Below are positions 16,688-64,000 of a DNA stretch of 64,000 nt, piece after piece. Below the pieces are notes generated by a model that was given only the letters and a program-made list of their open reading frames with translations, had not been told where the DNA came from and made no database searches. Made by a program: the position numbers and the translations under genes. Positions within the stretch are counted from its first letter, which is position 1; every line of letters starts with the position of its first letter. This DNA comes from Lytechinus pictus (lineage: Eukaryota): NCBI RefSeq assembly GCF_037042905.1, contig NC_087262.1, positions 5,332,001 through 5,396,000 on the forward strand, read 5' to 3'.

Positions 16688-18887
16688 TAAAAATGACCAA
16701 TACGTCATATTGAATTATTTCTATCAGTCTTGATGAAAATTAAAACCAGGATATTTTAGTTGTATGATATTTGGCGAGTCCTGTAGAATTAGCGATGGAA
16801 CTTGTCAGCAGGTCAGTATCCTAAAAAACTAATGTGATGATTTCTTAATGGTTCGACCTGCCAGGACAACATTCTTTTCTCGAAAACTATTACATAGTTA
16901 AATACTAATATTGTCGGATCAGCGAATTATATTGTCAACTGTTTTTTTTTTAAGAACAAATAATAAATTGTCGGCACTTCAAAATGGTAAAATAATGTTG
17001 AACTTTGGGGAGTATCAAAAGGGGTACTATATTTTTTTGTTTTAAATAATGGTAATTATCTGAGTACTATATTTGGTAATTATTTGAGTACTCGTAGTTT
17101 GCCTCGTACGCCCTCTCTCGTCCACTGTTGGTATAATCATGAAAGCAGTCGATGCAAGTTTTCCCCTGTGTCGGTTGATTCCTTCACACACCACTACGCT
17201 CAGGGAACGAAGCAGACGATATTTCTTTTATCCTGCCTACACTGTCGCAGCCGTCCGTCCAGTCGGTGCTCTCAAAACAACTTACTACTATCTTCGGTGA
17301 ATATTCGAAGTGTTAATCATTCTATATCGAGGCATCTTATTTATCTGTACCTTAAGTAATTTGTCACGGACTTAATTGGATTTAAGGGCGTCTAGAAAGG
17401 ACGCTTGAAGCAGTTTTTAGGTGGTTATGTCATCGATGTGAAGAGGTTTATTGCCCAATCTATACAAACTCAGACCGATTAATCTCCGAGTTGTATTGTT
17501 GATGTCTCTCTAGGAATCTTATTTTCCGCTCAGTGTTTTCTTAGGGGATGACTAGCTTGCCAAAGATGTAAAAGTTTGTTTTATGGATTAACGCCGGATC
17601 ATTCAGGATAAATATATGCCTCCCATAATATAGCGGTAAGGATCATGCCTGGATTTGTTGTGATAGTACCACACGTGCAGTAGTCCTATTCAGACCACGG
17701 ACATGACGGACCTGTTATAATATTCAGCCATATCAATGGGGCATGAAATTCAAAAGAGAAAACTATTCAAATTTACCGAATTTAATGTTCAATGGATAAG
17801 AAACTAGTATTACAGCTCTTTAAAACTTACTATATCAATTCGGTATTTATGAATGAGCCCAATTTGATATTTTGACCTCTCAAGCTACCGACGGTTTTAC
17901 TAATCAACTTTTTTAAATTTTCATATATTAACATTAACTCGCATTGTTTTCTTACCAAGGGTTGTGTCATAACTCCATTGGACTGACTATAGTGCCTGTC
18001 GGAAATTATCTGATGAAATCGAACTTCATACTTGGATGCATACTCTTAGTTTCTTGTTTTCCTAAGACCCTTTTCATAGGAATCGCATTTAAAACGATCA
18101 AGGACGGTCAGAAATCAGACAATCTATATACTATTTTGATCGTGATTACCGCTTTTCACACATTCATGTCAGATAATCGCACTCGATTTCGCGCCAGGAA
18201 TTGGAAAATAAGGAGCCGCGTCGATGTGATTGCAGTTCGTTCTCTTCAAGACGCGCCTCTCTCATCCTCCCATTCCCAACAGAGTGGTGGAGTCTATTAC
18301 AGATTGTTTTAAAATCGGCTTCTGCTGGTTCATTCCTCAAGACAGACTGGGAGAAGCGCTGATCATCAACAAGGTTCATCGCCCTTCCCTTTTCTACTCT
18401 TGAAGATTTCAGATAAACCTTTCGGTTTACACGAGATAATACGTTTCATTCATTTCTCGTATATTCGCAGGATGATGCCACGCTTGTCATGGCGGTGTAT
18501 TATTCGATTTATGCGATAAGGAGATAAGTAAGGAGTCGAGTTTTAAGGTAATCCTGTTTCTGTTTAGGTGATAAAACGAAGGAATCATCTATCCGAAAAT
18601 CATACTGTGTGATCTTGATTAATTTCAAGTTTTCGTCCTGTCTTACGAAGTTGTCTTATTCTTTCAAGGTTGTCCGCAAGCAGGCAATCGTGCGCTTGCA
18701 AAAATATTTTATTGAAACATCAAATAGAATCATATCTATGATTGAATTTCGTCGGAGTAAACTTTGACGAGTTCAATGGCCACTGGAACCATACCTTTGG
18801 AATATACATATGGAATATAATCATTAGTTTACCGACTAAAGCGACCTCCTCTGCGCATCCCTGGACCATCTTGACACCTTCAGCAAT

Positions 18888-18940
18888 TGCGTCACTTGCC
18901 GACCAACCACCAACCAACCAACCCCGCCCCTGTACCAATC
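18888..18940 (+). promoter_or_regulatory. Candidate proximal promoter motifs upstream of the PKG exon
   Basis: TGCGTCA (CRE-like, 18888), CCCCGCCCC GC box (18922) and CCAAT (18935). Short motifs only. Confidence 0.3.
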
Positions 18941-18990
18941 ACACTCCGGGCTTCCAGATGCACCTGGACACCATACCTCAAGCCACGGCC

Positions 18991-19268
18991 ATGGCGACAC
19001 TACGCGACCTCCAGTTCGCCCTGCAGGAGAAGATCGAAGAGCTTCGACAACGGGACGAGCTCATCGACGAGCTCGAACTCGAGCTCGACGAGAAGGATGT
19101 TATCATCCAGAGACTACAGAATGAACTTGATAAGTACCGATCAGTGATCCGTCCGGCAACCAAGCATGTCATGCAAAGATCGAAACAGAAAAGATTAGGA
19201 ATATCCGCCGAATCTGGTGGCGATCTTCCAGATACTGCAGAACTTAAAGTCATACCAAAGTCACAAAG
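18991..19268 (+). CDS. PRKG1: cGMP-dependent protein kinase I, first coding exon (Ibeta-type leucine zipper and autoinhibitory segment)
   Basis: [57 protein letters not shown] closely matches the vertebrate PKG Ibeta N-terminus. Also: pseudosubstrate KRLGISAE, Kozak GCCATGG, donor AG|GTAAGT after 19268 (phase 2), in-frame upstream ATG at 18958. Confidence 0.93.
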
Positions 19269-19905
19269 GTAAGTTAATCATATTTTTTTCCTCTCATCCA
19301 CCCATTCCAGCAAAACTGCACCTTCCGAAACCCCTTTATTTTACATTGCTATATTATCAAGCAACTTGGAATAGTCTCTTGATAGTTTGTCGTACAATCA
19401 AGATGATTCTTGTTACTTTTGCAGTATCTGTAATTCGTTGTTACAAAATTACGACATTTTCAGCGAATAATACAACTCTTATTATGCTGTACATCAAATT
19501 GCTTCTGCCTGAGAAAGGGAAACAATGTACATTTATTTCACTAGAAAGAAGGCATTACCAGATCCCGGAATAGTCTGATGTGCAAACTTTTCACTCCAGT
19601 TATCAAGTGGTCTGAATACGCAGCCTACAATGTATTGTGTACTGAAGGCCCTTCAATTGAAACAGCAAGTGTTATATGGGCTAGTCCTGCGTGAAGACCC
19701 ACTTGTTGATCAAAGTTTCAATCAAGGTCTGTGGCTGCAGACAACCCCCTGAATACTTCCCAGCTGTTTGCAAAGTTTTAGCCCTGCTAAACAATCGACT
19801 TAATTTTTTTTCAAAAATCATCAAAGTCCTTTCGATAAAGATGACAAGGTACTCTATTCTACAGTGCTCTATTTATCAAAGTCTTGACGTTTTAAGTAAA
19901 ACTCT

Positions 19906-51857: not shown

Positions 51858-52206
51858 GGGTAAATTGTCAATTCGTCTACTGCCAACTCGTCCACTCACC
51901 ACATGGTCTACCTTCATTTACTCTAATGCCATTCCTTCACTTCGTCTATGACAATTTCGTCTCATGAGCAATTGGTCTAATATTCGTTGTATTTTCATTC
52001 ATTTTGCCCAATTAACACTTAGTCTAATTACACCAAATGGTATATGGACTAAATGGATATTAGACCAACTGGTTATTAGACGAAATGGTGAGTGGACAAA
52101 ATGGCAATAAGACCACGTGGATATTGAACGAACTGATGGTAGACCAACTGATAGTAGACGAGTTGGCATTTGGACGAATTGACATTAGACCAAATGGAAA
52201 TAAACC
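51858..52206. mobile_element. MITE/HINE-like element built from inverted ~15-bp subrepeats
   Basis: TCGTCTA / TGGTCTA repeats on the left and TAGACCAA / TAGACGA repeats on the right. Confidence 0.65.
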
Positions 52207-52477: not shown

Positions 52478-52647
52478 GGGTGTTTCATGAAGCTGTTCGT
52501 AAGTTAAGAGCGACTTTAAGAACGACTGGTGATCCTTTCTTGTGGTATAATGGTATAATCATTAGCGATGGCTTTGCGAGTAAGAAAGGATCACCAGTCG
52601 TTCTTAAAGTCGCTCTTAACTTACGAAGCAGCTTTATGAAACGCCCC
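52478..52647. mobile_element. Harbinger-like palindromic MITE
   Basis: Arms of about 60 bp including a long perfect stem (TTCGTAAGTTAAGAGCGACTTTAAGAACGACTGGTGATCCTTTCTT). Confidence 0.9.
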
Positions 52648-53588: not shown

Positions 53589-54035
53589 TAAGTGTGATTT
53601 GGATAAAATGAATGAAAATTTATATAATTATTTGTTATCTTCCCCAAACGTATTCATTTGTATGAATTAGTTAAGCCGGTTGAAAAATTATATAATTGTT
53701 TGTGACCTTGTTAAGGCATATTCATTAGTGAAATTTGATAAACCGAATGAAAAATTATATTATCATCTGATACATTCTTCAAGCATAATCATTAGTGAAA
53801 TTAGATAAGCAGAATGAAAAATTATACAATTATTTGTTATCTTGTCCAAACATATTCATTAGTGTGAATTAATTATTAAAGCCGAATGAAAAATTCTATG
53901 AATGTTACCTTGTTAAATCATATTCATTGGTGAATTGGATAAACCAAATGAAAAATTATATTATTGTCTGATACCTTGTTAAAACATATTATTTGGTGTG
54001 AATTAGTCAAACCGAATGAAAAAAAATCTACAATT
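53589..54035. repeat. AT-rich minisatellite, about 66-68 bp, about 7 copies
   Basis: Recurrent ATATTCATTAGTG...GATAAACCGAATGAAAAATTATA. Confidence 0.8.
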
Positions 54036-54067
54036 GCTTAATTTTTCTTTTGCTTATATACTATCAG

Positions 54068-55682
54068 TGTGACTGCCTTCGTAAAACTTTCTACGAAGGA
54101 GTTTCGTCTACTTATGTCCAACTATTGTTATTCACAAGGCACAAGGAATCAATCAATGCTGGACTCGACTTGTTGAAATAAAACAAACTTTCGCTTTATT
54201 CAGTTAATCTCCAACACTGGTGACAAACTTCAGTCGTACTTTCAGTTATACTTATATGCACCTTCAGATAACAATCTGTAATGATAATGAATAAACAAAC
54301 AATAATAAACAAATGTTTCATCTTGAAATCATGTCAATTACTAAATCTAAGTTAGTACAACAATTACGATTACATATGATTAAATGAGAATTAATCTGAC
54401 ACTAATATAAGTGATCATCATACACTTGTACTATTATACCTTATAACATTAACCTAATTTAATAGAGTATAAAATATACAAGGAATAAAGTTAATCTATT
54501 GATTAAATCCTCGTATGAACACATCTACACTCACTTTGTGCTGTGCACTACTAAGTATTCTACCCAATAGATATTGGCCGGGTGAACATAACTACATGCC
54601 AACACAGTCATTCATTCAAGGTTTCTCCCTAAATCACTCCCAGAGGAAAGGTCTTTCTCTCCACGAAAGTTATGGTTTTGTTCTTAATAACAAATTGGCC
54701 ATGTACGAACAGTAATCTACATTATCACAAGTTAAACATGAAACTAAAGAAGTAACTCTTTAGAGATGATTAGAGTATAATAAGAAAACAAACTAGTAAT
54801 AGTTCCTACTATTACACTAACTCAGCTTATAACGAAACAGCATAACATTATTCTATCTTAAGATTAAAGTTAAACCAGATTAAAATACAAATGTGAACAA
54901 GCCCTGCATTTACAACGTGCAGTAACTTATCTACTCAAAAGAGAAAGTAAAAAGGGATGAATGTGAAAGGGGCCACATTCCAAAGTAGTCATTCATAGAC
55001 CCTGCTTCTACTGGATTAGCAAAAACAGACTCTCTTTGTTTCCCAATGAAACTAGACTTCTTGCTTTATGTATAATTACACCCAACTAATTCATTGTATT
55101 TAAAAGCCTTTTACATCTTAGCACTTCTAGATGGAAATGTATTATACAAGAACAATATTATGAGATCTATCAACATCAGTATATTCACCTATTCCTCAAA
55201 TATACTAAACTGTACAACAAAGAAATCAACTTTCCTACACTATGCAATATACGTATTACACTCTGTTAACACAAACACATAATCTTCTCTAACTAAAAAC
55301 ATTCAAAACTATCTTAAATAGTAATATGAATTCTACAATATATTTACCATGTTAAATATCAAAACAATATTATATGAAATATGTTCTTACCGAATTGGGC
55401 CTTTGTAGTTGTCCACAAATAACAATTTACTTGAACTTTCTGCAACTGATTGTGAGTAGTACTTTACTCCATCACTCTGACTATGAGAATGAAAGTTATC
55501 TTTACTTCCAAGAAGATATTCTTGGAGAGAAGTTGGAGAACAATGAAATTACTCTACTATTAGCGGTGAGTCACACCTTCTGGGGAAACATATACCTCTT
55601 TGGTGGTATAGTCTTGATAATCAGACTCTTGATGAAGATTGGATGAGAGAATATAACATCACTACACACTGCTGTAGTGACA
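54068..55682 (-). repeat. 3' LTR (relative to the ORF)
   Basis: Same sequence as 61752-63366 at offset 7684 wherever checked; AATAAA on the minus strand at 54195-54200. Confidence 0.97.
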
Positions 55683-55945
55683 TGGCTCCTTTAAATGTAC
55701 CTACATTTACTAAATTAGCTTCAATTATTACGAATATAAAGTACAACAAATTATACCACATCATAATACAAATTAATCTTAAACAATACTTTGACCAATA
55801 ATATACCCAATGGATACATACACACAATGCAACCTTTAAAACAGCATTCTAGCCTTTAGAATTATCACTGAACCATACATGAAAAGAAAAACAACAATTT
55901 AAACGCATCATTTATATCATCGTTAAATGAAAATGTAAAAGATAA

Positions 55946-56016
55946 TGGCTCTTTGAGGGGGAAAGCTCCGAGTCTTTCGCGAGACAAATGGGATACTTCC
56001 ACTTTACTACTGTGGA
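55946..56016 (-). pseudogene. Degenerate full-length tRNA-Asp(GTC)-derived sequence with encoded CCA in the element 3' UTR
   Basis: TCCACAGTAGTAAAGTGGAAGTATCCCATTTGTCTCGCGAAAGACTCGGAGCTTTCCCCCTCAAAGAGCCA aligns end to end (about 52 of 76 columns by hand) with canonical animal tRNA-Asp recalled from memory. The acceptor stem and B box are broken. Confidence 0.75.
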
Positions 56017-56032
56017 TTTTGAGTGGGAATAA

Positions 56033-59000
56033 TTACTGTTGATTGGGTAACAGAAGAACTAACTTGTTTACTGGTCTGTCGAATTTAGTTGGTGGGCTCT
56101 GGCGTTTGCCATTATTATCTAACTGTCCATCAGCCATTAGAAGTTTTACCTTCCTAATTCTACCATCGGCACTAGGATAGACATCTATCACCCTAGCTAA
56201 GGGCCACTTGTATCGTCCTCCCTCCTCTTCTTTGGAGATTACAATATCACCTATCGTTAAGTCTTTTTCTGTACTTGTCCATTTTCTACGCTCTTGCAGT
56301 CCCTGCAAATATTCTTTCCTCCATCGTAGCCAGAACTCATTGGCGAGGTGTTGGACGCGTCTCCACCACTTCCTAGAGTACACATCTTCGCGCTGGAAGA
56401 CTCCTGGTGGGGGTAATATGACTTTGGGCTTGGCAGTCAAGATATGATGAGGGGTCAGTGGTTCTGGTGCTTCACTGTCACTTAGATTGGTTGTCGTCAA
56501 TGGCCTGGAGTTGATTATGGCTTCTGCTTCGGTCATGAAGGTTCTGAAGGCCTCATCATCAAGTTGACTCCCAGATGATTTCAGCAATGGCTCTAGTGCA
56601 CGTCGCACTGACTGAATCTGCCTCTCCCAAACTCCACCCATATGAGAGGCATGGGGCACATTCATCTTGAATGGTATCCAGTCACATCCATTCTCAAGCA
56701 GGTACTCTTGTACCTTTCCCTGGTCCATTTCAGACAGCGCTTCCTTCAACTCGTTTCTGGCTCCAATGAATGCTGTACCCTGGTCAGAGCGTAGATGCCT
56801 TACAGCACCCCGTCGATTCATGAAACGCCGCAACGCGTTGATGAAGGCACTGCTACTAAGACTGTTAGCAGTTTCCAGGTGTACACTTCTTGAAGACAGA
56901 CATGTGAAGAGCGCACCATATCTCTTGACTTCACTCCGTCTTTCCTTGATAAGAAAGGGTCCAAAATAGTCCACTGCACAATACGAGAATGGTGGAGAAG
57001 GCTCAACTCTTTCTTCTGGAAGATCTGCCATCTTTTGTTGGAGGGGCTGTCCTCGCAATCGTCGACATGTCACACAGGACGAGATGCATTGTGAAACTGC
57101 AGACACTCCTCCTATCACCCAGTATCCTCTCTGACGTAGCTCATTATGAGTAATGCCTCTACCACTATGTTGGGTCCTGTGATGAGCATCTCGGATCAGC
57201 AGTGTTGTGACATGACTCTTACGAGGAATAATCACTGGATGTCTAATGTTACTGGACAAATTGGCGCGATGTATCCGGCCGCCGACTCGAATCACCCCGT
57301 CATCATCTAGAAACGGGTCCAATCTGAAGAGGGCACTGGTTTTCTTCAGTGCCGCATTTCGAGTAGGTACTTCATGTCTACTCATTTCTCCTGTCTTATC
57401 TAGTTCTTTAAGAATCTGCAGCTCCTGCGGGAAGTTTTCTTGTTGTAAACCTCTAATGATGACCTTCTCAGCTTCCTGCAGCTCACTCACTGTCACAACC
57501 TTAGGGATCGTTGCTTCCACTGATCTAGAACTCGTTCTGGTATGCTGGTTAGCCCTTTTCTTCAGACTCGTCTTCAGCTGTATACATCTGGCTACTGCCT
57601 TCTTGGCAGAGTGCCAACTGGAGAAGCAATTCAAACGGTTGGATTCAAATTGCCCTGTACTGACCTTGGTAGTTGCTTCTGTTCTCAGGACTGAGGCATG
57701 CTTCACCTCTGGGTCGTGGTCATCTACCGTACATGGATCATCTCCTGGGGGTGCAAACAAACCATCATTCCACAGGAAATCTGGGCCTCGAAACCAGCAG
57801 TGGCTAGAAGTGAGCTCCTTTGATGAGATTCCTCGAGAAGCTCCATCAGCAGGATTCTCCTTGGTATCAACATAGTACCATGCATCAGGGTCAGTCTGCT
57901 CTCGGATTGTCTGAACTCTGTTGGCAACGAAGATATGAAACCGCCTGGCTTCATTTTTTATGTATCCAAGAACAACCTTACTGTCTGTCCAGAAGAACTC
58001 CTTCACAGAATCGTATTCCAGTTCCGACTTCAGGAATGTGCTGCTCTTGGCTGACAATGTTGCTGCTGTTAGCTCCAGTCTTGGAATGGTAATTGGTCTC
58101 AATGGAGTAACTCGGGCCTTTCCGATTACGAATGAACAATGCACTTTGTCATCCTCATTGATGAGACGGAGATATGAACATTGCCCATACCCATCCTGAC
58201 TGGCATCAGAGAAATGGTGGACTTCTACCTGCTTGACCTTGCCGAACCTACTTGGTTTGTAGCATCTCTTGAGTTGGAGGTCACCTAGATGCTGGAGATC
58301 AAGCAGCCATTTCTCCCATTCTGAACGCTGTTCATCGGTCATAGATTCGTCCCAGTCCATGTTCTGCTTGCACATAGCTTGGAGAATCCTCTTGCCTTTA
58401 AGAACTACTGGACCAAGAAAGCCGCTTGGATCATAGATTGAACTGATCGTTGAGAGAACACCTCGTCTGGAGAATGAGTTTGCCTTCACCTGCCCTCTGA
58501 AGTTGAAGGTGTCATTCTCAATGTTCCAGGACACTCCTAGAACTCTTTCCAGCACAAGCTTGTCGACATCTAAATCCAGGTCTTGCAGGCTTTTTGCTCG
58601 TTCATCTGCTGGAAAGCTTTTCAGAACTTCTCTGCTGTTAGACACAATCTTGTGCAATTTCAGTCCTGATTTTGCACAGATTGCTTGACTGTTTTTCAGC
58701 AGCTGCACAGCCTCTTCCGCAGTAGGTCGTGAACTAAGACCGTCATCTACGTAGAAGTCTCTACGAATGAACTCTGCTGCACTTGAACCGAACTCTTCTT
58801 CACCATCTGTTGCAGCCCTTCTCAGTCCAAAGTTACTGCATCCTGGAGAACTAGCTGCTCCGAAGAGATGAACCTTCATCCGGTATTCAACAGCTTCCTT
58901 TGTTTCGTCACCGCCTTCATACCACAGGAACCGCAGCAAGTTCCGGTCTTCTTCATTTACGTAGAACTGAAGGAACATTCCTTTCACATCAGCCATGAAG

Positions 59001-61642
59001 GCAACTTCTTCCTTTCGGAATCGGCACAGAACACCAAGTAGTCCATTCATCAGGTCAGGACCTTGCAGAAGATGATCATTCAAGGATACACCTTCAAATT
59101 TTGCTGAACAGTCGAATACAACACGAATCTTGTCAGGCTTGTGTGGATGGTACACCCCTGTGTGCGGAATATAGTTTACTCTGCCATCTCGAACCTTCAA
59201 GCAGTCATCTGGTACTCGTTCTGCGTAGTTGGTGATTACATCATCCATGAAGGCCTTGTAGTCCTCCAGAAACTTCTGGTTCTTCCTAAATCTTGCAGAT
59301 AGCTGTCTCCATCTTTTAACAGCAAGAATCTTGTTGTCAGGAAAGGTCACATGATCAGACTTCAAAGGCAAGGGCATTTGGTAGTGTCCATCACTTCTCT
59401 TGCGGATTCCATTCTCAAAGATTGCCATGAATCTTGCTTCTTTCACTGAAAGTGGCGCTCCTTTCGGACTTGTCATTTGGAAGTCTTGTTCCAAGATCTT
59501 CAGTACAGACTCTGGTGTAAACACTTCCTTCGCTTGGCTTGAGTGCACCAGGTGGGGATATCCTTCACTTGTCTGAATCCTGTTACAGACGGCATCATCA
59601 CTTTGAGAACTTTGACATACTCTGCCGACGACGCCCCATCCGAGTGAGGTTTTCATCGCATACGGGTCGTCTTCTGCACCAGCGAGTACTTCTCGGGGTC
59701 GAATTGCTCTAGGACAGTTGTTTCCTATGAGCAAGGAAACCTTAATTGACGGGTTGTATGGCATCAACTCATCTGCGATTGGTGCTAGATGCCTCCATTT
59801 CCTCAGAACTTCTGCCTTGGGAATTTGTGACCGCTTGGCCGGAACCTCTTGTCTGGTGTAGCAGGACGGGAGTTGGACAACTGTAGACTTCTGGAAGTCC
59901 AAGACCTCGAGACCACTAATCTTTTGACAGCTAATGCGAGCACTCTCGTGCATTGTTGTCAGCAAAAGATCAGTCTCAGGTCCTTTAACACCCATTCTGT
60001 GGCAAAGACCACTGGAGACAAATCCAACGTTGGACTGGTCGTCGAGGATCGCATATTCCAGGAATTCCCTCGATGGATCATCAGCTTGCCTCACCCAAAC
60101 CGGCACAATCATACAATGGTCCTTTCCATCTTGGTCAGGAAGATCGCAGATGTTGGTACAGTTTGAGCTAGCCGATGATTTTTCTATCTTCTGTCGGTGT
60201 AGGCATGTCAAGTGGTTTCCCTTACACCTTTTACATTCCCGGCGTTGCTTGCAGTCCTTCCCAAGGTGGTTGCTACTTTGGCCACATCCCATACACAGAT
60301 ACTTCTTGAAGAAGAACGTCTTCTTATCCTTGTAGTAGATCTGCTTGAACTCTGGGCAGTCGTCGATGTGATGGTCCTTATCACAGTAAGGACATGATGA
60401 ATACTCCTTTCCATGTGCGGCTGTTGTAGACAGTGACCGACCTTGAAAGGTCTTCCCTTTCGGAGGTGCTGACTTTACTTTCGCCTCGTCTAACCTGGTG
60501 TATTCCAACTCTGGAATATTGGCCACTTCTGCTGCACTGGTGACGAAGTCTACAAATCTGGCAAAGGTAGGGTAACTGCCATATCCACATCGCTGCCACT
60601 TGGTCACCTCGTCTCTCCATTTGCGTTCAAGGTAGAATGGAACCTTCCTCAACAGCTTGACGTTCTCCTGCGGATAATCGAGAATGCCAAGGGAATCAAC
60701 AGTCACCTTGGCAACGCTGACCTGCTGGAGAAAGTCCGCAAATGACCGCAATCCACTTGGATCCCGATCTGAGATTCTCGGCCACGTGTTTAACTTCTTC
60801 ATGAATGCTGATGAAACTACACTGGTGTTGCCATACCTGCTGGCGAGAGACTCCCTTGCTTTCAGGTAAGCTTCATCGGTGCCAAGAAGAAGATAATGCT
60901 CCACGACCTTCTTTGGTTCACCAGTAACATATGTATGCAACATATGAAGCTTGGTTGCGGCATCTAGAGGCTTGGAGTCAACGAAACTTGAAAATGCATT
61001 TCTCCAGAGGGGATATCGTAATGGGTCACCATTAAATACCGGAACATCCACCTTTGGTAACTGACTGGCTGCCAATACTTGTTGACTAGTCGCATTTTGA
61101 TTCAGCATCATGTTGGCTACCTTGGCAAGTGACTCAACCACGTTTTCCATTCCTGGTGAAGCGTTGGTTGGTTCATGCTTCACTTCACTCAGAGTGGCTG
61201 GAACTGGTGGGGCTTGGGTCTGGATCTTGCCCTCATCCGTCGATTGAGATTCAAAGAATCTTTGAACAGACTCCTCCTTCGTCTCCTCTGGCAACTTGAT
61301 ACTGGTGTTTGAGAGCTCATCTTCTGATTCTGCAAGTTCGGCTAATTTCTGCTGATGTTCTTTCTGCAGCTTCAACCGTTTCAGCTCCATCTGGGCTCTC
61401 TCCAGTTGCATTGCATGTTCATGCTCCCTTTGCAGAATCTTTATGTTGTCCTCTTTGTCCATAACATCAAGTTCAGCCTGAAAGGCCTTGATAAGCATCT
61501 CGCTTTTGGCTGATTTTCTGCTTGCTAGACTCCTAGCTGGTTTTGGATACTTATCCATCATTTCTGGCAGCGAAGAGGACGTCCTCTGAAGATCTACACG
61601 TGTAGCCTCGCTGACTAGATTTTTTCCATCTATGTTGGCCAT
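56033..61642 (-). CDS. BEL/Pao Gag-Pol polyprotein (1869 aa from the first ATG; frame open to at least 61729)
   Basis: Gag LPKVDVPVFNGDP; three Zn knuckles (CPYC..H..C, CMGC..H..C, CKRC..H..H); protease ILDDQS; RT FYVDDG; RNase H HFSDAS / LELTAA / WTDS; integrase HHCC plus VDYFGPF / SDQG / WERQI; C-terminal FWLRWRKEYL; no env. Confidence 0.97.
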   Translation of the reverse strand: MANIDGKNLVSEATRVDLQRTSSSLPEMMDKYPKPARSLASRKSAKSEMLIKAFQAELDVMDKEDNIKILQREHEHAMQLERAQMELKRLKLQKEHQQKLAELAESEDELSNTSIKLPEETKEESVQRFFESQSTDEGKIQTQAPPVPATLSEVKHEPTNASPGMENVVESLAKVANMMLNQNATSQQVLAASQLPKVDVPVFNGDPLRYPLWRNAFSSFVDSKPLDAATKLHMLHTYVTGEPKKVVEHYLLLGTDEAYLKARESLASRYGNTSVVSSAFMKKLNTWPRISDRDPSGLRSFADFLQQVSVAKVTVDSLGILDYPQENVKLLRKVPFYLERKWRDEVTKWQRCGYGSYPTFARFVDFVTSAAEVANIPELEYTRLDEAKVKSAPPKGKTFQGRSLSTTAAHGKEYSSCPYCDKDHHIDDCPEFKQIYYKDKKTFFFKKYLCMGCGQSSNHLGKDCKQRRECKRCKGNHLTCLHRQKIEKSSASSNCTNICDLPDQDGKDHCMIVPVWVRQADDPSREFLEYAILDDQSNVGFVSSGLCHRMGVKGPETDLLLTTMHESARISCQKISGLEVLDFQKSTVVQLPSCYTRQEVPAKRSQIPKAEVLRKWRHLAPIADELMPYNPSIKVSLLIGNNCPRAIRPREVLAGAEDDPYAMKTSLGWGVVGRVCQSSQSDDAVCNRIQTSEGYPHLVHSSQAKEVFTPESVLKILEQDFQMTSPKGAPLSVKEARFMAIFENGIRKRSDGHYQMPLPLKSDHVTFPDNKILAVKRWRQLSARFRKNQKFLEDYKAFMDDVITNYAERVPDDCLKVRDGRVNYIPHTGVYHPHKPDKIRVVFDCSAKFEGVSLNDHLLQGPDLMNGLLGVLCRFRKEEVAFMADVKGMFLQFYVNEEDRNLLRFLWYEGGDETKEAVEYRMKVHLFGAASSPGCSNFGLRRAATDGEEEFGSSAAEFIRRDFYVDDGLSSRPTAEEAVQLLKNSQAICAKSGLKLHKIVSNSREVLKSFPADERAKSLQDLDLDVDKLVLERVLGVSWNIENDTFNFRGQVKANSFSRRGVLSTISSIYDPSGFLGPVVLKGKRILQAMCKQNMDWDESMTDEQRSEWEKWLLDLQHLGDLQLKRCYKPSRFGKVKQVEVHHFSDASQDGYGQCSYLRLINEDDKVHCSFVIGKARVTPLRPITIPRLELTAATLSAKSSTFLKSELEYDSVKEFFWTDSKVVLGYIKNEARRFHIFVANRVQTIREQTDPDAWYYVDTKENPADGASRGISSKELTSSHCWFRGPDFLWNDGLFAPPGDDPCTVDDHDPEVKHASVLRTEATTKVSTGQFESNRLNCFSSWHSAKKAVARCIQLKTSLKKRANQHTRTSSRSVEATIPKVVTVSELQEAEKVIIRGLQQENFPQELQILKELDKTGEMSRHEVPTRNAALKKTSALFRLDPFLDDDGVIRVGGRIHRANLSSNIRHPVIIPRKSHVTTLLIRDAHHRTQHSGRGITHNELRQRGYWVIGGVSAVSQCISSCVTCRRLRGQPLQQKMADLPEERVEPSPPFSYCAVDYFGPFLIKERRSEVKRYGALFTCLSSRSVHLETANSLSSSAFINALRRFMNRRGAVRHLRSDQGTAFIGARNELKEALSEMDQGKVQEYLLENGCDWIPFKMNVPHASHMGGVWERQIQSVRRALEPLLKSSGSQLDDEAFRTFMTEAEAIINSRPLTTTNLSDSEAPEPLTPHHILTAKPKVILPPPGVFQREDVYSRKWWRRVQHLANEFWLRWRKEYLQGLQERRKWTSTEKDLTIGDIVISKEEEGGRYKWPLARVIDVYPSADGRIRKVKLLMADGQLDNNGKRQSPPTKFDRPVNKLVLLLPNQQ

Positions 61643-61739
61643 GATGAAAAACTTTTGGGCAGTAAAGTTCCAAGTAGTATGTTTGGATGATTCCAGAACT
61701 TTCTGAACGTGATCCTGACTGGACGACACAAGTTGTCCG

Positions 61740-61751
61740 TTCGATTGTTAT
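61740..61751 (-). promoter_or_regulatory. Non-tRNA primer-binding-site position (ATAACAATCGAA)
   Basis: Abuts the 5' LTR, lacks TGG, and is complementary to the predicted LTR splice junction. Confidence 0.55.
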
Positions 61752-63366
61752 TGTGACTGCCTTCGTAAAACTTTCTACGAAGGAGTTTCGTCTACTTATG
61801 TCCAACTATTGTTATTCACAAGGCACAAGGAATCAATCAATGCTGGACTCGACTTGTTGAAATAAAACAAACTTTCGCTTTATTCAGTTAATCTCCAACA
61901 CTGGTGACAAACTTCAGTCGTACTTTCAGTTATACTTATATGCACCTTCAGATAACAATCTGTAATGATAATGAATAAACAAACAATAATAAACAAATGT
62001 TTCATCTTGAAATCATGTCAATTACTAAATCTAAGTTAGTACAACAATTACGATTACATATGATTAAATGAGAATTAATCTGACACTAATATAAGTGATC
62101 ATCATACACTTGTACTATTATACCTTATAACATTAACCTAATTTAATAGAGTATAAAATATACAAGGAATAAAGTTAATCTATTGATTAAATCCTCGTAT
62201 GAACACATCTACACTCACTTTGTGCTGTGCACTACTAAGTATTCTACCCAATAGATATTGGCCGGGTGAACATAACTACATGCCAACACAGTCATTCATT
62301 CAAGGTTTCTCCCTAAATCACTCCCAGAGGAAAGGTCTTTCTCTCCACGAAAGTTATGGTTTTGTTCTTAATAACAAATTGGCCATGTACGAACAGTAAT
62401 CTACATTATCACAAGTTAAACATGAAACTAAAGAAGTAACTCTTTAGAGATGATTAGAGTATAATAAGAAAACAAACTAGTAATAGTTCCTACTATTACA
62501 CTAACTCAGCTTATAACGAAACAGCATAACATTATTCTATCTTAAGATTAAAGTTAAACCAGATTAAAATACAAATGTGAACAAGCCCTGCATTTACAAC
62601 GTGCAGTAACTTATCTACTCAAAAGAGAAAGTAAAAAGGGATGAATGTGAAAGGGGCCACATTCCAAAGTAGTCATTCATAGACCCTGCTTCTACTGGAT
62701 TAGCAAAAACAGACTCTCTTTGTTTCCCAATGAAACTAGACTTCTTGCTTTATGTATAATTACACCCAACTAATTCATTGTATTTAAAAGCCTTTTACAT
62801 CTTAGCACTTCTAGATGGAAATGTATTATACAAGAACAATATTATGAGATCTATCAACATCAGTATATTCACCTATTCCTCAAATATACTAAACTGTACA
62901 ACAAAGAAATCAACTTTCCTACACTATGCAATATACGTATTACACTCTGTTAACACAAACACATAATCTTCTCTAACTAAAAACATTCAAAACTATCTTA
63001 AATAGTAATATGAATTCTACAATATATTTACCATGTTAAATATCAAAACAATATTATATGAAATATGTTCTTACCGAATTGGGCCTTTGTAGTTGTCCAC
63101 AAATAACAATTTACTTGAACTTTCTGCAACTGATTGTGAGTAGTACTTTACTCCATCACTCTGACTATGAGAATGAAAGTTATCTTTACTTCCAAGAAGA
63201 TATTCTTGGAGAGAAGTTGGAGAACAATGAAATTACTCTACTATTAGCGGTGAGTCACACCTTCTGGGGAAACATATACCTCTTTGGTGGTATAGTCTTG
63301 ATAATCAGACTCTTGATGAAGATTGGATGAGAGAATATAACATCACTACACACTGCTGTAGTGACA
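61752..63366 (-). repeat. 5' LTR (relative to the ORF)
   Basis: TGTCACTAC ... GCAGTCACA on the minus strand; 1615 bp. Confidence 0.97.
61960..63074 (-). other. Predicted spliceosomal intron inside the LTR (1115 nt; also 54276-55390)
   Basis: Donor CG|GTAAGA, acceptor TTTGTTTATTCATTATCATTACAG|, U-rich interior; the exonic remainder of the LTR is 500 bp. Confidence 0.6.
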
Positions 63367-64000
63367 ATCAGGTTGCGATTTTAAAAGGGTACATTTAAGG
63401 AAATGACAATTTTTTACTTGTAAAGTATGTAATCAAATTCTTTGGGGGATTTTATGCATGATTGAATGATTTGCTCATCTAATCGAAATAGATTAACTGA
63501 TACACGTTAAAATTAAAATGTTAGAGCACCATGAAAGGGCCAAGGTGTGACCACATATTGAAGTGTTCGATGATTGGTTGATCTTATCGTGCTATAGATT
63601 TTTCAACAAAAAAAGTGTTGATATGTCTATAACATTTTTTAATGTGGTAAATCCTCGTAGCGAGTTGTGCCTTCACACAACATGAAACTGATATCCGTGT
63701 CCAATTAATATTTGATAAGTTGTATTGTAATAAATATAAAATCTTTAGATTTTTTTTTACTTTTGGTATATTCTTGTTTTGTAAGGTTATTTCATACTTC
63801 TATTGGAAGGTGGTTATGGATTTAGAATTTCATTTTTGTTGACTCTTTAGTCGAAGAAAAGTGGGCCTATAGTGAAAGTGGAACATGAAGAACTGCGTGA
63901 ACTTTTTAGAAAATAGTGACACGATATCGAGGTCTTAGACCGTATGTGACACTTATCGTGCGGGGTAGGGCTAATTGGAATAGTGATACCGGTTCTCGGC

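Follow-up and report, generated by a model that had tools for sequence, protein, structure and literature searches.

LTR retrotransposons and retroviruses are assumed to replicate from a coding-sense RNA template, with a tRNA or self-derived primer for the first DNA strand and a polypurine tract (PPT) as primer for the second. An element in the 64,000-nt window analysed here (the whole stretch of NC_087262.1 from Lytechinus pictus, positions 5,332,001 to 5,396,000) raises the question of how an LTR can keep an intron through such a cycle, and of which RNA strand serves as the template. The first-pass annotation had answered with an ambisense model, in which a spliced sense mRNA is combined with an antisense, tRNA-primed genomic RNA.

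An intron-bearing BEL/Pao element

One BEL/Pao LTR retrotransposon, intact and young, occupies positions 54068-63366 on the minus strand. Its LTRs (in sense naming, the 3' LTR at 54068-55682 and the 5' LTR at 61752-63366, both minus strand) are 1615 nt each, 100% identical and bounded by TG...CA, and the 5-bp target-site duplication (TSD) ATCAG lies on both sides (54063-54067 and 63367-63371, plus strand). A single gag-pol ORF of BEL/Pao type occupies one stop-free minus-strand frame of 1904 aa, counted stop to stop (56033-61747), with its first ATG at 61642 (56033-61642 from that ATG). Pao peptidase A17 (PF05380), DUF1759 (PF03564) and DUF5641 (PF18701) score above the Pfam cut-offs, and a match to the integrase H2C2 domain (PF17921) falls below its own. 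The genome holds at least five full copies of this family and at least three further near-whole LTR loci, while the element's reverse transcriptase (RT) has 111 matching loci; viral contigs were searched for relatives and none was found. The insertion is antisense within an intron of the host cGMP-dependent kinase gene, whose coiled-coil exon lies at 18742-19269 on the plus strand (PF16808). A Pfam cNMP search located no host exons near the window; the next kinase exon found, placed by its motifs, lies ~30 kb past it.

By the ICTV description (PMC8742986), Belpaoviridae have LTRs of 0.2-1.2 kb, with an 18-nt primer-binding site (PBS) for tRNA-Arg or tRNA-Gly behind the 5' LTR and, ahead of the 3' LTR, a PPT of ~10 nt that primes the second strand. 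The element shares with them its single gag-pol ORF, its BEL/Pao-type domains and its TG...CA LTRs, but its LTR is 1.6 kb long and contains an intron, its PBS matches a splice junction and, where a PPT would be expected, its antisense strand matches tRNA-Asp.

The predicted intron is 1115 nt long, has GT-AG ends and is present in both LTRs (63074-61960 in the 5' LTR, with a second conserved donor at 62218, and 54276-55390 in the 3' LTR, minus strand). Exon 2 holds the only sense AATAAA of the LTR, the predicted polyA signal (61879-61884 in the 5' LTR, minus strand). The intron is real, because precisely intronless LTRs occur in the genome. A solo LTR (G000:C7), which has no matching TSD, lacks exactly the 1115-nt GT-AG intron; two more families of the same clade have lost theirs exactly, both in solo LTRs, one of which has a perfect 5-bp TSD; and exact loss is also found in full-length elements of three sister families. 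Intronless LTR variants of ~500 bp, which the first-pass annotation had suggested searching for, are thus present but rare (one of the eight near-whole LTR loci of this family). The same annotation had reasoned that retention of the intron requires an antisense template. That argument is not supported, since sister families keep LTR introns, and the junction pairing described below, in the absence of the tRNA site. Intron retention therefore has another solution than an antisense template, seen in sister clades with G-rich PPTs and no tRNA tract.

A primer site that matches the splice junction

The normal PBS position, which was compared directly with the host Lys, Glu and Asp tRNAs only, has no TGG. 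As the first-pass annotation had observed, the plus strand before the right LTR is identical to the splice-junction RNA: the 12 nt at 61740-61751 reproduce the exon 1/exon 2 junction. The minus-strand PBS at this position pairs with the last 4 nt of exon 1 (63075-63078, minus strand) and the first 8 nt of exon 2 (61952-61959, minus strand), and the pairing stops flush at the LTR edge. Unspliced RNA pairs over only 9 nt.

Scored against its own consensus-filtered donor-acceptor junction, the PBS shows 10-14 bp of pairing in 23/23 families, a set that excludes four redundant copies, three incomplete-LTR loci and two intronless loci. Pairing of at least 10 bp was reached in controls by 2/920 shuffled PBSs and by 22/506 PBSs of other families, mostly close relatives. 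One incomplete-LTR family, scored separately, has an 11-bp junction pairing. Metagenome elements that have both an LTR and a PBS pair over 11-12 bp in four of five cases, and two of them show matching changes in exon 1 and in the PBS.

The joint between primer and cDNA is also fossilised in DNA, at three loci of one sister family, where exon 1 and the junction are followed by the reverse complement of U5. Exon 1 extends back to LTR position 1 in these fossils, which also show the position of the primer cut. Because a PPT lies upstream of exon 1 in two of the three, the primer derives from a spliced 3' LTR. In one fossil, the copied PBS variant is unlike the element's own PBS, which suggests priming in trans. 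The family-wide pairing and the sister-family fossil joints together support the earlier proposal that the junction RNA acts as a primer, and they refute chance as the source of the junction pairing.

Priming by element-derived RNA has parallels. In the cited parts of PMC4600332 and PMC6317226, Tf1/Tf2/Tj1 and Tf1/sushi elements likewise have an RNA of their own that pairs with an LTR-adjacent PBS and needs a cut to provide a 3' OH; in Tf1/sushi, RNase H makes this cut within an RNA duplex. In Tf1/sushi, as described there, the primer is the contiguous mRNA 5' end, whereas here it exists only after splicing (the contiguous match is 9 nt, and 12 nt are reached only across the junction). Unlike the primer of Tf1/sushi, that of the sister-family fossils is traced to a spliced 3' LTR, once apparently from another RNA molecule, and the Ty3/gypsy-type proteins of those elements have BEL/Pao domains as their counterpart here. 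Outside subscription journals, Repbase Reports and supplements, a literature search found neither splice-junction priming nor an antisense tRNA site in BEL/Pao elements, and the main text of PMC3118150 makes no mention of a primer, PBS, tRNA, intron or PPT.

tRNA-Asp sequences on the strand opposite the ORF

The first-pass annotation had placed a TGG-type site and an extended tRNA-complementary tract on the strand opposite the ORF, and both hold up. Host tRNA-Asp(GTC), which was obtained by pattern search (an Rfam tRNA search gave essentially only tRNA-Lys), ends in AAGGAG before CCA. The plus strand at 55683-55691, flush with the LTR and at the sense-strand PPT position, is a perfect 9-nt complement of that 3' end with its CCA, with 11/18 matches over the full PBS length. 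The flush site reads AAGGAGCCA in nine host families and in 14/16 further copies; in a tenth family, its end is disrupted. Metagenome loci with a flush site, several of them redundant, have AAGGAGCCA in 0/17 cases and mostly GGGGAGCCA, which corresponds to the end of human tRNA-Asp in the cited part of PMC5605243. In a quick SH-aLRT tree of RTs, whose inner branches are weak, the host form AAGGAGCCA falls in two well-supported clades with GGGGAGCCA relatives between them, and this element clusters with GGGGAGCCA relatives at 99% SH-aLRT. Judged from these sequences, and with the tRNA-Asp of other hosts assumed, the flush site appears to track host tRNA-Asp.

On the sense strand, the flush sequence is purine-rich, follows a T-run and, in a visual alignment, corresponds to the G-rich PPTs of sister families, so that the earlier statement that no good PPT exists was too strong. 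This PPT-position sequence equals the 3' 9 nt of host tRNA-Asp and varies by host. An account of the antisense TGG as the mere reverse complement of an ordinary PPT was dropped given the tRNA-Asp match, the metagenome variants and the whole-tRNA tract. A search for a fossil joint of tRNA 3' end, CCA and LTR start gave 0 hits.

Near the stop codon, the tract ending at 55946 has 15/18 identity to the tRNA-Asp 3' end, a score reached by 0/2000 shuffles. The extended complementarity noted in the first-pass annotation proves to be a degenerate copy of the whole mature tRNA-Asp with its CCA, in sense orientation (55946-56016, minus strand), the complement of which may serve as a docking site. Throughout the clade (14/14 rows, 10 families), 15-17 of the 18 tRNA-end positions match, against at most 12 in 16 other families. 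The whole-tRNA match beats all 30 shuffles in 10/10 clade families, in 0/16 others and in 6/12 metagenome elements, and the tract is retained across families whose RTs are only ~47-66% identical to that of this element. Its 18-mer always has a mismatch of 1-3 nt at positions 5-8, and its last base is mismatched in 4/10 families. An internal docking motif common to the GGGGCCGG or GGGGAGGA clades was sought and none was found; a search for fossils in which the LTR is joined directly to the internal tract gave 0 hits.

Substitutions in the tract are biased across nine aligned families, with T>C at 14/138 versus A>G at 1/124 (P = 0.0009) and G>A at 52/194 versus C>T at 26/179 (P = 0.005), P values that are optimistic because rows are related and alignments gapped. 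This bias would fit G-U pairing of the tRNA with the antisense strand, whereas a sense cloverleaf predicts the opposite changes. Readings of the copy as a sense cloverleaf or as a Pol III promoter were rejected: the acceptor stem is broken, and no part is less conserved than the T-loop (B box). One might still appeal to chance for the tRNA resemblance and the junction pairing together, given that they span no more than 9 and 12 nt, but with the family-wide and control counts for the junction, the shuffles at the tract score and the existence of fossil joints, this is barely credible.

Bipartite tRNA-binding sites and captured tRNA-like sequences have been described in other elements. Ty1 and Ty3 have a bipartite PBS, a short LTR-adjacent site and a distant site for other tRNA arms, in the cited part of PMC5371799; there, the sites are on the coding-sense genome, whereas here the antisense strand carries both, with a whole tRNA copy as the distant one. 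Helenus and Cassandra TRIMs, which carry tRNA- or 5S-derived sequence, are likewise LTR elements with a captured tRNA-like sequence. In the cited part of PMC10886601, this sequence lies within the LTR and acts as a Pol III promoter, and no pairing with the PBS was found. Unlike that of Helenus, the tRNA copy of this element is in the 3' UTR, outside the LTR, with the T-loop least conserved and an antisense-pairing bias, and it accompanies an autonomous ORF rather than a non-autonomous TRIM.

Alternatively, the element could have a sense genome, a first strand primed by the junction RNA and an ordinary PPT, the tRNA-Asp copy being either the relic of a capture or a target for regulation (of tRNA fragments acting on antisense read-through RNA, for instance). 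The purine-rich flush sequence after its T-run, with its by-eye alignment to sister PPTs, agrees with this; the invariable tract mismatches at positions 5-8, the one at the last base in some families and the partly read-through origin of the antisense RNA (see below) also count for it. Left unexplained, though, are a CCA that ends exactly at the LTR, host-tRNA tracking in two lineages and the wobble-biased retention of the tract across such divergent RTs, and we regard this explanation as distinctly unlikely.

Strand of the template and order of priming

Stranded rRNA-depleted raw-read runs of the same species label (X19, X20 and X21; ~6% of each examined) contain RNA related to the element. 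Across X19 and X20 (309 reads), first-mate depth lay on the plus strand in 0/30 bins. The element RNA is antisense, because spliced control reads of a plus-strand ribosomal protein gene share this mate direction (first mate on the minus strand in 24/24). It is unspliced, with LTR depth at 0.79 and 0.67 of internal depth rather than 2; at a depth of only 2-4, no spliced reads cross the LTR intron. X21 gave 21 reads, with depth on the minus strand in three bins and on the plus strand in one; all are 90-95% alike and none exceeds 95%, and they therefore come from a related family, X21 being without this one. Four X20 reads run into the left LTR from a flank unlike any copy compared, and read alleles agree with the C56 copy, rather than with this copy, at 24/24 sites. 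The unspliced antisense RNA that the ambisense model calls for thus exists, but it is at least partly read-through from the flank. The RNA seen is sufficiently explained by host read-through of a polymorphic insertion, since reads enter from the flank and carry C56 alleles, X21 is without the family and this copy sits antisense within an intron of the host.

Both strand orders, with an antisense or a sense genome, yield the same DNA, and intronless copies bear on the choice between them. Among ORF-bearing copies chosen by RT match (six loci unscorable), intronless LTRs occur in 0/36 of the tRNA clade versus 3/31 elsewhere (one-sided Fisher P ~0.09), or versus 4/32 when one further candidate is counted (P ~0.04). 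Three intronless solo LTRs in the tRNA-Asp clade show that the cycle can also run to completion there from spliced sense RNA.

From the flush site and the tract, tRNA-Asp quite probably primes the sense-polarity DNA strand. Given such priming, three points slightly favour an antisense template. On a sense genome, this primer sequence would already be annealed as the remnant of the PPT, so that a tRNA would be needed by an antisense genome only; tRNA priming is established on RNA templates in the cited part of PMC5371799; and the clade lacks full-length intronless copies.

We tentatively propose, with confidence just short of even, that the clade packages a negative-sense RNA that is primed by tRNA-Asp through the whole-tRNA docking site, and that the end of the spliced mRNA primes the second strand. 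The complementary tract, 263 nt inside, would take up host tRNA-Asp and unfold it; the tRNA would then pass to the LTR-flush 9-nt site and prime the first DNA strand there on unspliced antisense RNA. Spliced sense RNA of the element, acting both as mRNA and as the source of the junction primer, would be cut ~8 nt into exon 2 and, at the 12-nt site, serve as primer for the second strand; primer cut and joint are present as DNA fossils in the sister family. The antisense template would never be spliced, so that progeny would retain the intron, and the ancestral sense-template route would remain as a leak giving rare intronless LTRs. An antisense promoter and packaging of antisense RNA would be required. 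Such a cycle may have originated from an ancestral GGGAG-type PPT that was similar to the end of tRNA-Asp, with antisense transcripts of the LTR becoming primable; a template that cannot be spliced would then end the conflict between spliced primer RNA and unspliced template RNA. The tRNA-Asp antisense pairing, the junction primer and the antisense RNA are what stands of the first-pass model; its argument from intron retention does not.

The two primers could also be swapped on a sense genome: junction RNA would prime the first strand, on RNA with an unspliced 3' LTR, and tRNA-Asp would replace the PPT on minus DNA, docking on the complementary tract once that DNA is single-stranded. This order accounts for both tRNA sites and for host tracking, as well as for the intronless solo LTRs in the tRNA clade; it keeps the route of the sister families, with their primer-cDNA fossils at three loci and their full-length intronless elements; and it does without an antisense promoter or antisense packaging and sidesteps dsRNA. 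It has, however, no precedent for tRNA priming on DNA in the literature examined, a long tRNA:DNA hybrid would be a substrate for RNase H, and the remnant of the PPT would already be in place. The clade's lack of intronless full-length copies and the absence of sense reads in X19 or X20 also weigh against it, and we consider it a serious but rather unlikely alternative.

Indirect signs of strand order lend weak support to the ambisense reading. Antisense AATAAA is missing from host clade ORFs (0 versus 14 expected; rank 4 among 3884 hexamers). The deficit was not replicated in metagenome relatives (8 versus 10.8), counts of similar T-rich hexamers are low as well, and AATAAA does occur in the UTRs. 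Synonymous singleton transitions on the sense strand number 107 purine to 153 pyrimidine in the clade versus 91:76 elsewhere (pooled P = 0.007), a pyrimidine bias present in only 5/8 families and significant in neither single comparison. Skews at four-fold sites gave no consistent separation of the clade, with GC skew at P = 0.006 in host families and no difference in metagenome ones.

The tRNA-Asp-site clade of BEL/Pao elements is widespread, and its tRNA-Asp flush site, whole-tRNA tract and antisense RNA are new here. Whether the template is antisense or the primers are swapped on a sense genome, both primers would be non-standard, one made by the spliceosome and the other a tRNA on the antisense strand; taken jointly, these two readings are probable. 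The element offers a specific and testable way for an intron to be retained in an LTR. If the ambisense reading is true, the genome RNA is negative-sense; transcripts antisense to retrotransposons, which are commonly put down to silencing or read-through, would need reinterpretation, and PBS and PPT annotation for BEL/Pao would change. An antisense genome, if confirmed, would define a new replication class, the ambisense LTR retrotransposon.

Antisense RNA and signals within the LTR

Antisense transcription is not confined to intact copies of the BEL/Pao element. The stranded, rRNA-depleted RNA-seq runs X19 and X20 both contain antisense reads at window positions 59641-59806 that come from a related copy and carry its 164-nt deletion; this defective copy is transcribed antisense too. 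Four AATAAA motifs on the + strand (54177, 54290, 54304 and 54484), all within the initial 420 nt of the LTR, are candidate antisense polyadenylation signals, although sister clades carry such motifs as well. Two of the four fall within the pyrimidine tract of the acceptor. A second donor within the LTR intron (GTGAGT, 62218), from which a shorter second sense transcript could arise, is kept in the next family, and internal donors resembling it are present in other families.

Flanking repeats and host tRNA loci

Left of the element, a degenerate tandem array with a 67-68-nt unit (window 53597-54028) stops just short of the left LTR. Farther out lie a perfect inverted repeat, its 46-nt arms separated by a spacer of 40 nt (52496-52627), and, at 51878-52150, further inverted repeats together with 16-nt repeats.

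Elsewhere in the host genome (G000), matches to the tRNA-Asp 3' motif, representing candidate genes, form a tandem array spaced at ~152 nt (C13:21151773-21170076), and tRNA-Lys genes form an array at C4:9.70-9.74 Mb. The host and human tRNA-Asp have different acceptor stems.

Intronless and rearranged relatives

One related insertion (L085/L086, G000:C17:31767206-31775350), bounded by a target site duplication, has intronless outer LTRs, an inner LTR with the intron, and a short stretch of internal sequence in inverted orientation; it is a product of multi-template reverse transcription. Another locus, L061, with a 434-nt LTR containing a contiguous 12-nt complement of its own PBS, probably represents an intron-bearing family in intronless form. 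Two LTRs with fold-back rearrangements that appear to have arisen independently, L174 (C10:22605874-22612134) and L175 (C10:31436904-31437341), have breakpoints at the same 8-nt microhomology, ~127 nt upstream of the acceptor. This shared breakpoint possibly marks a strong-stop end or a pause site.
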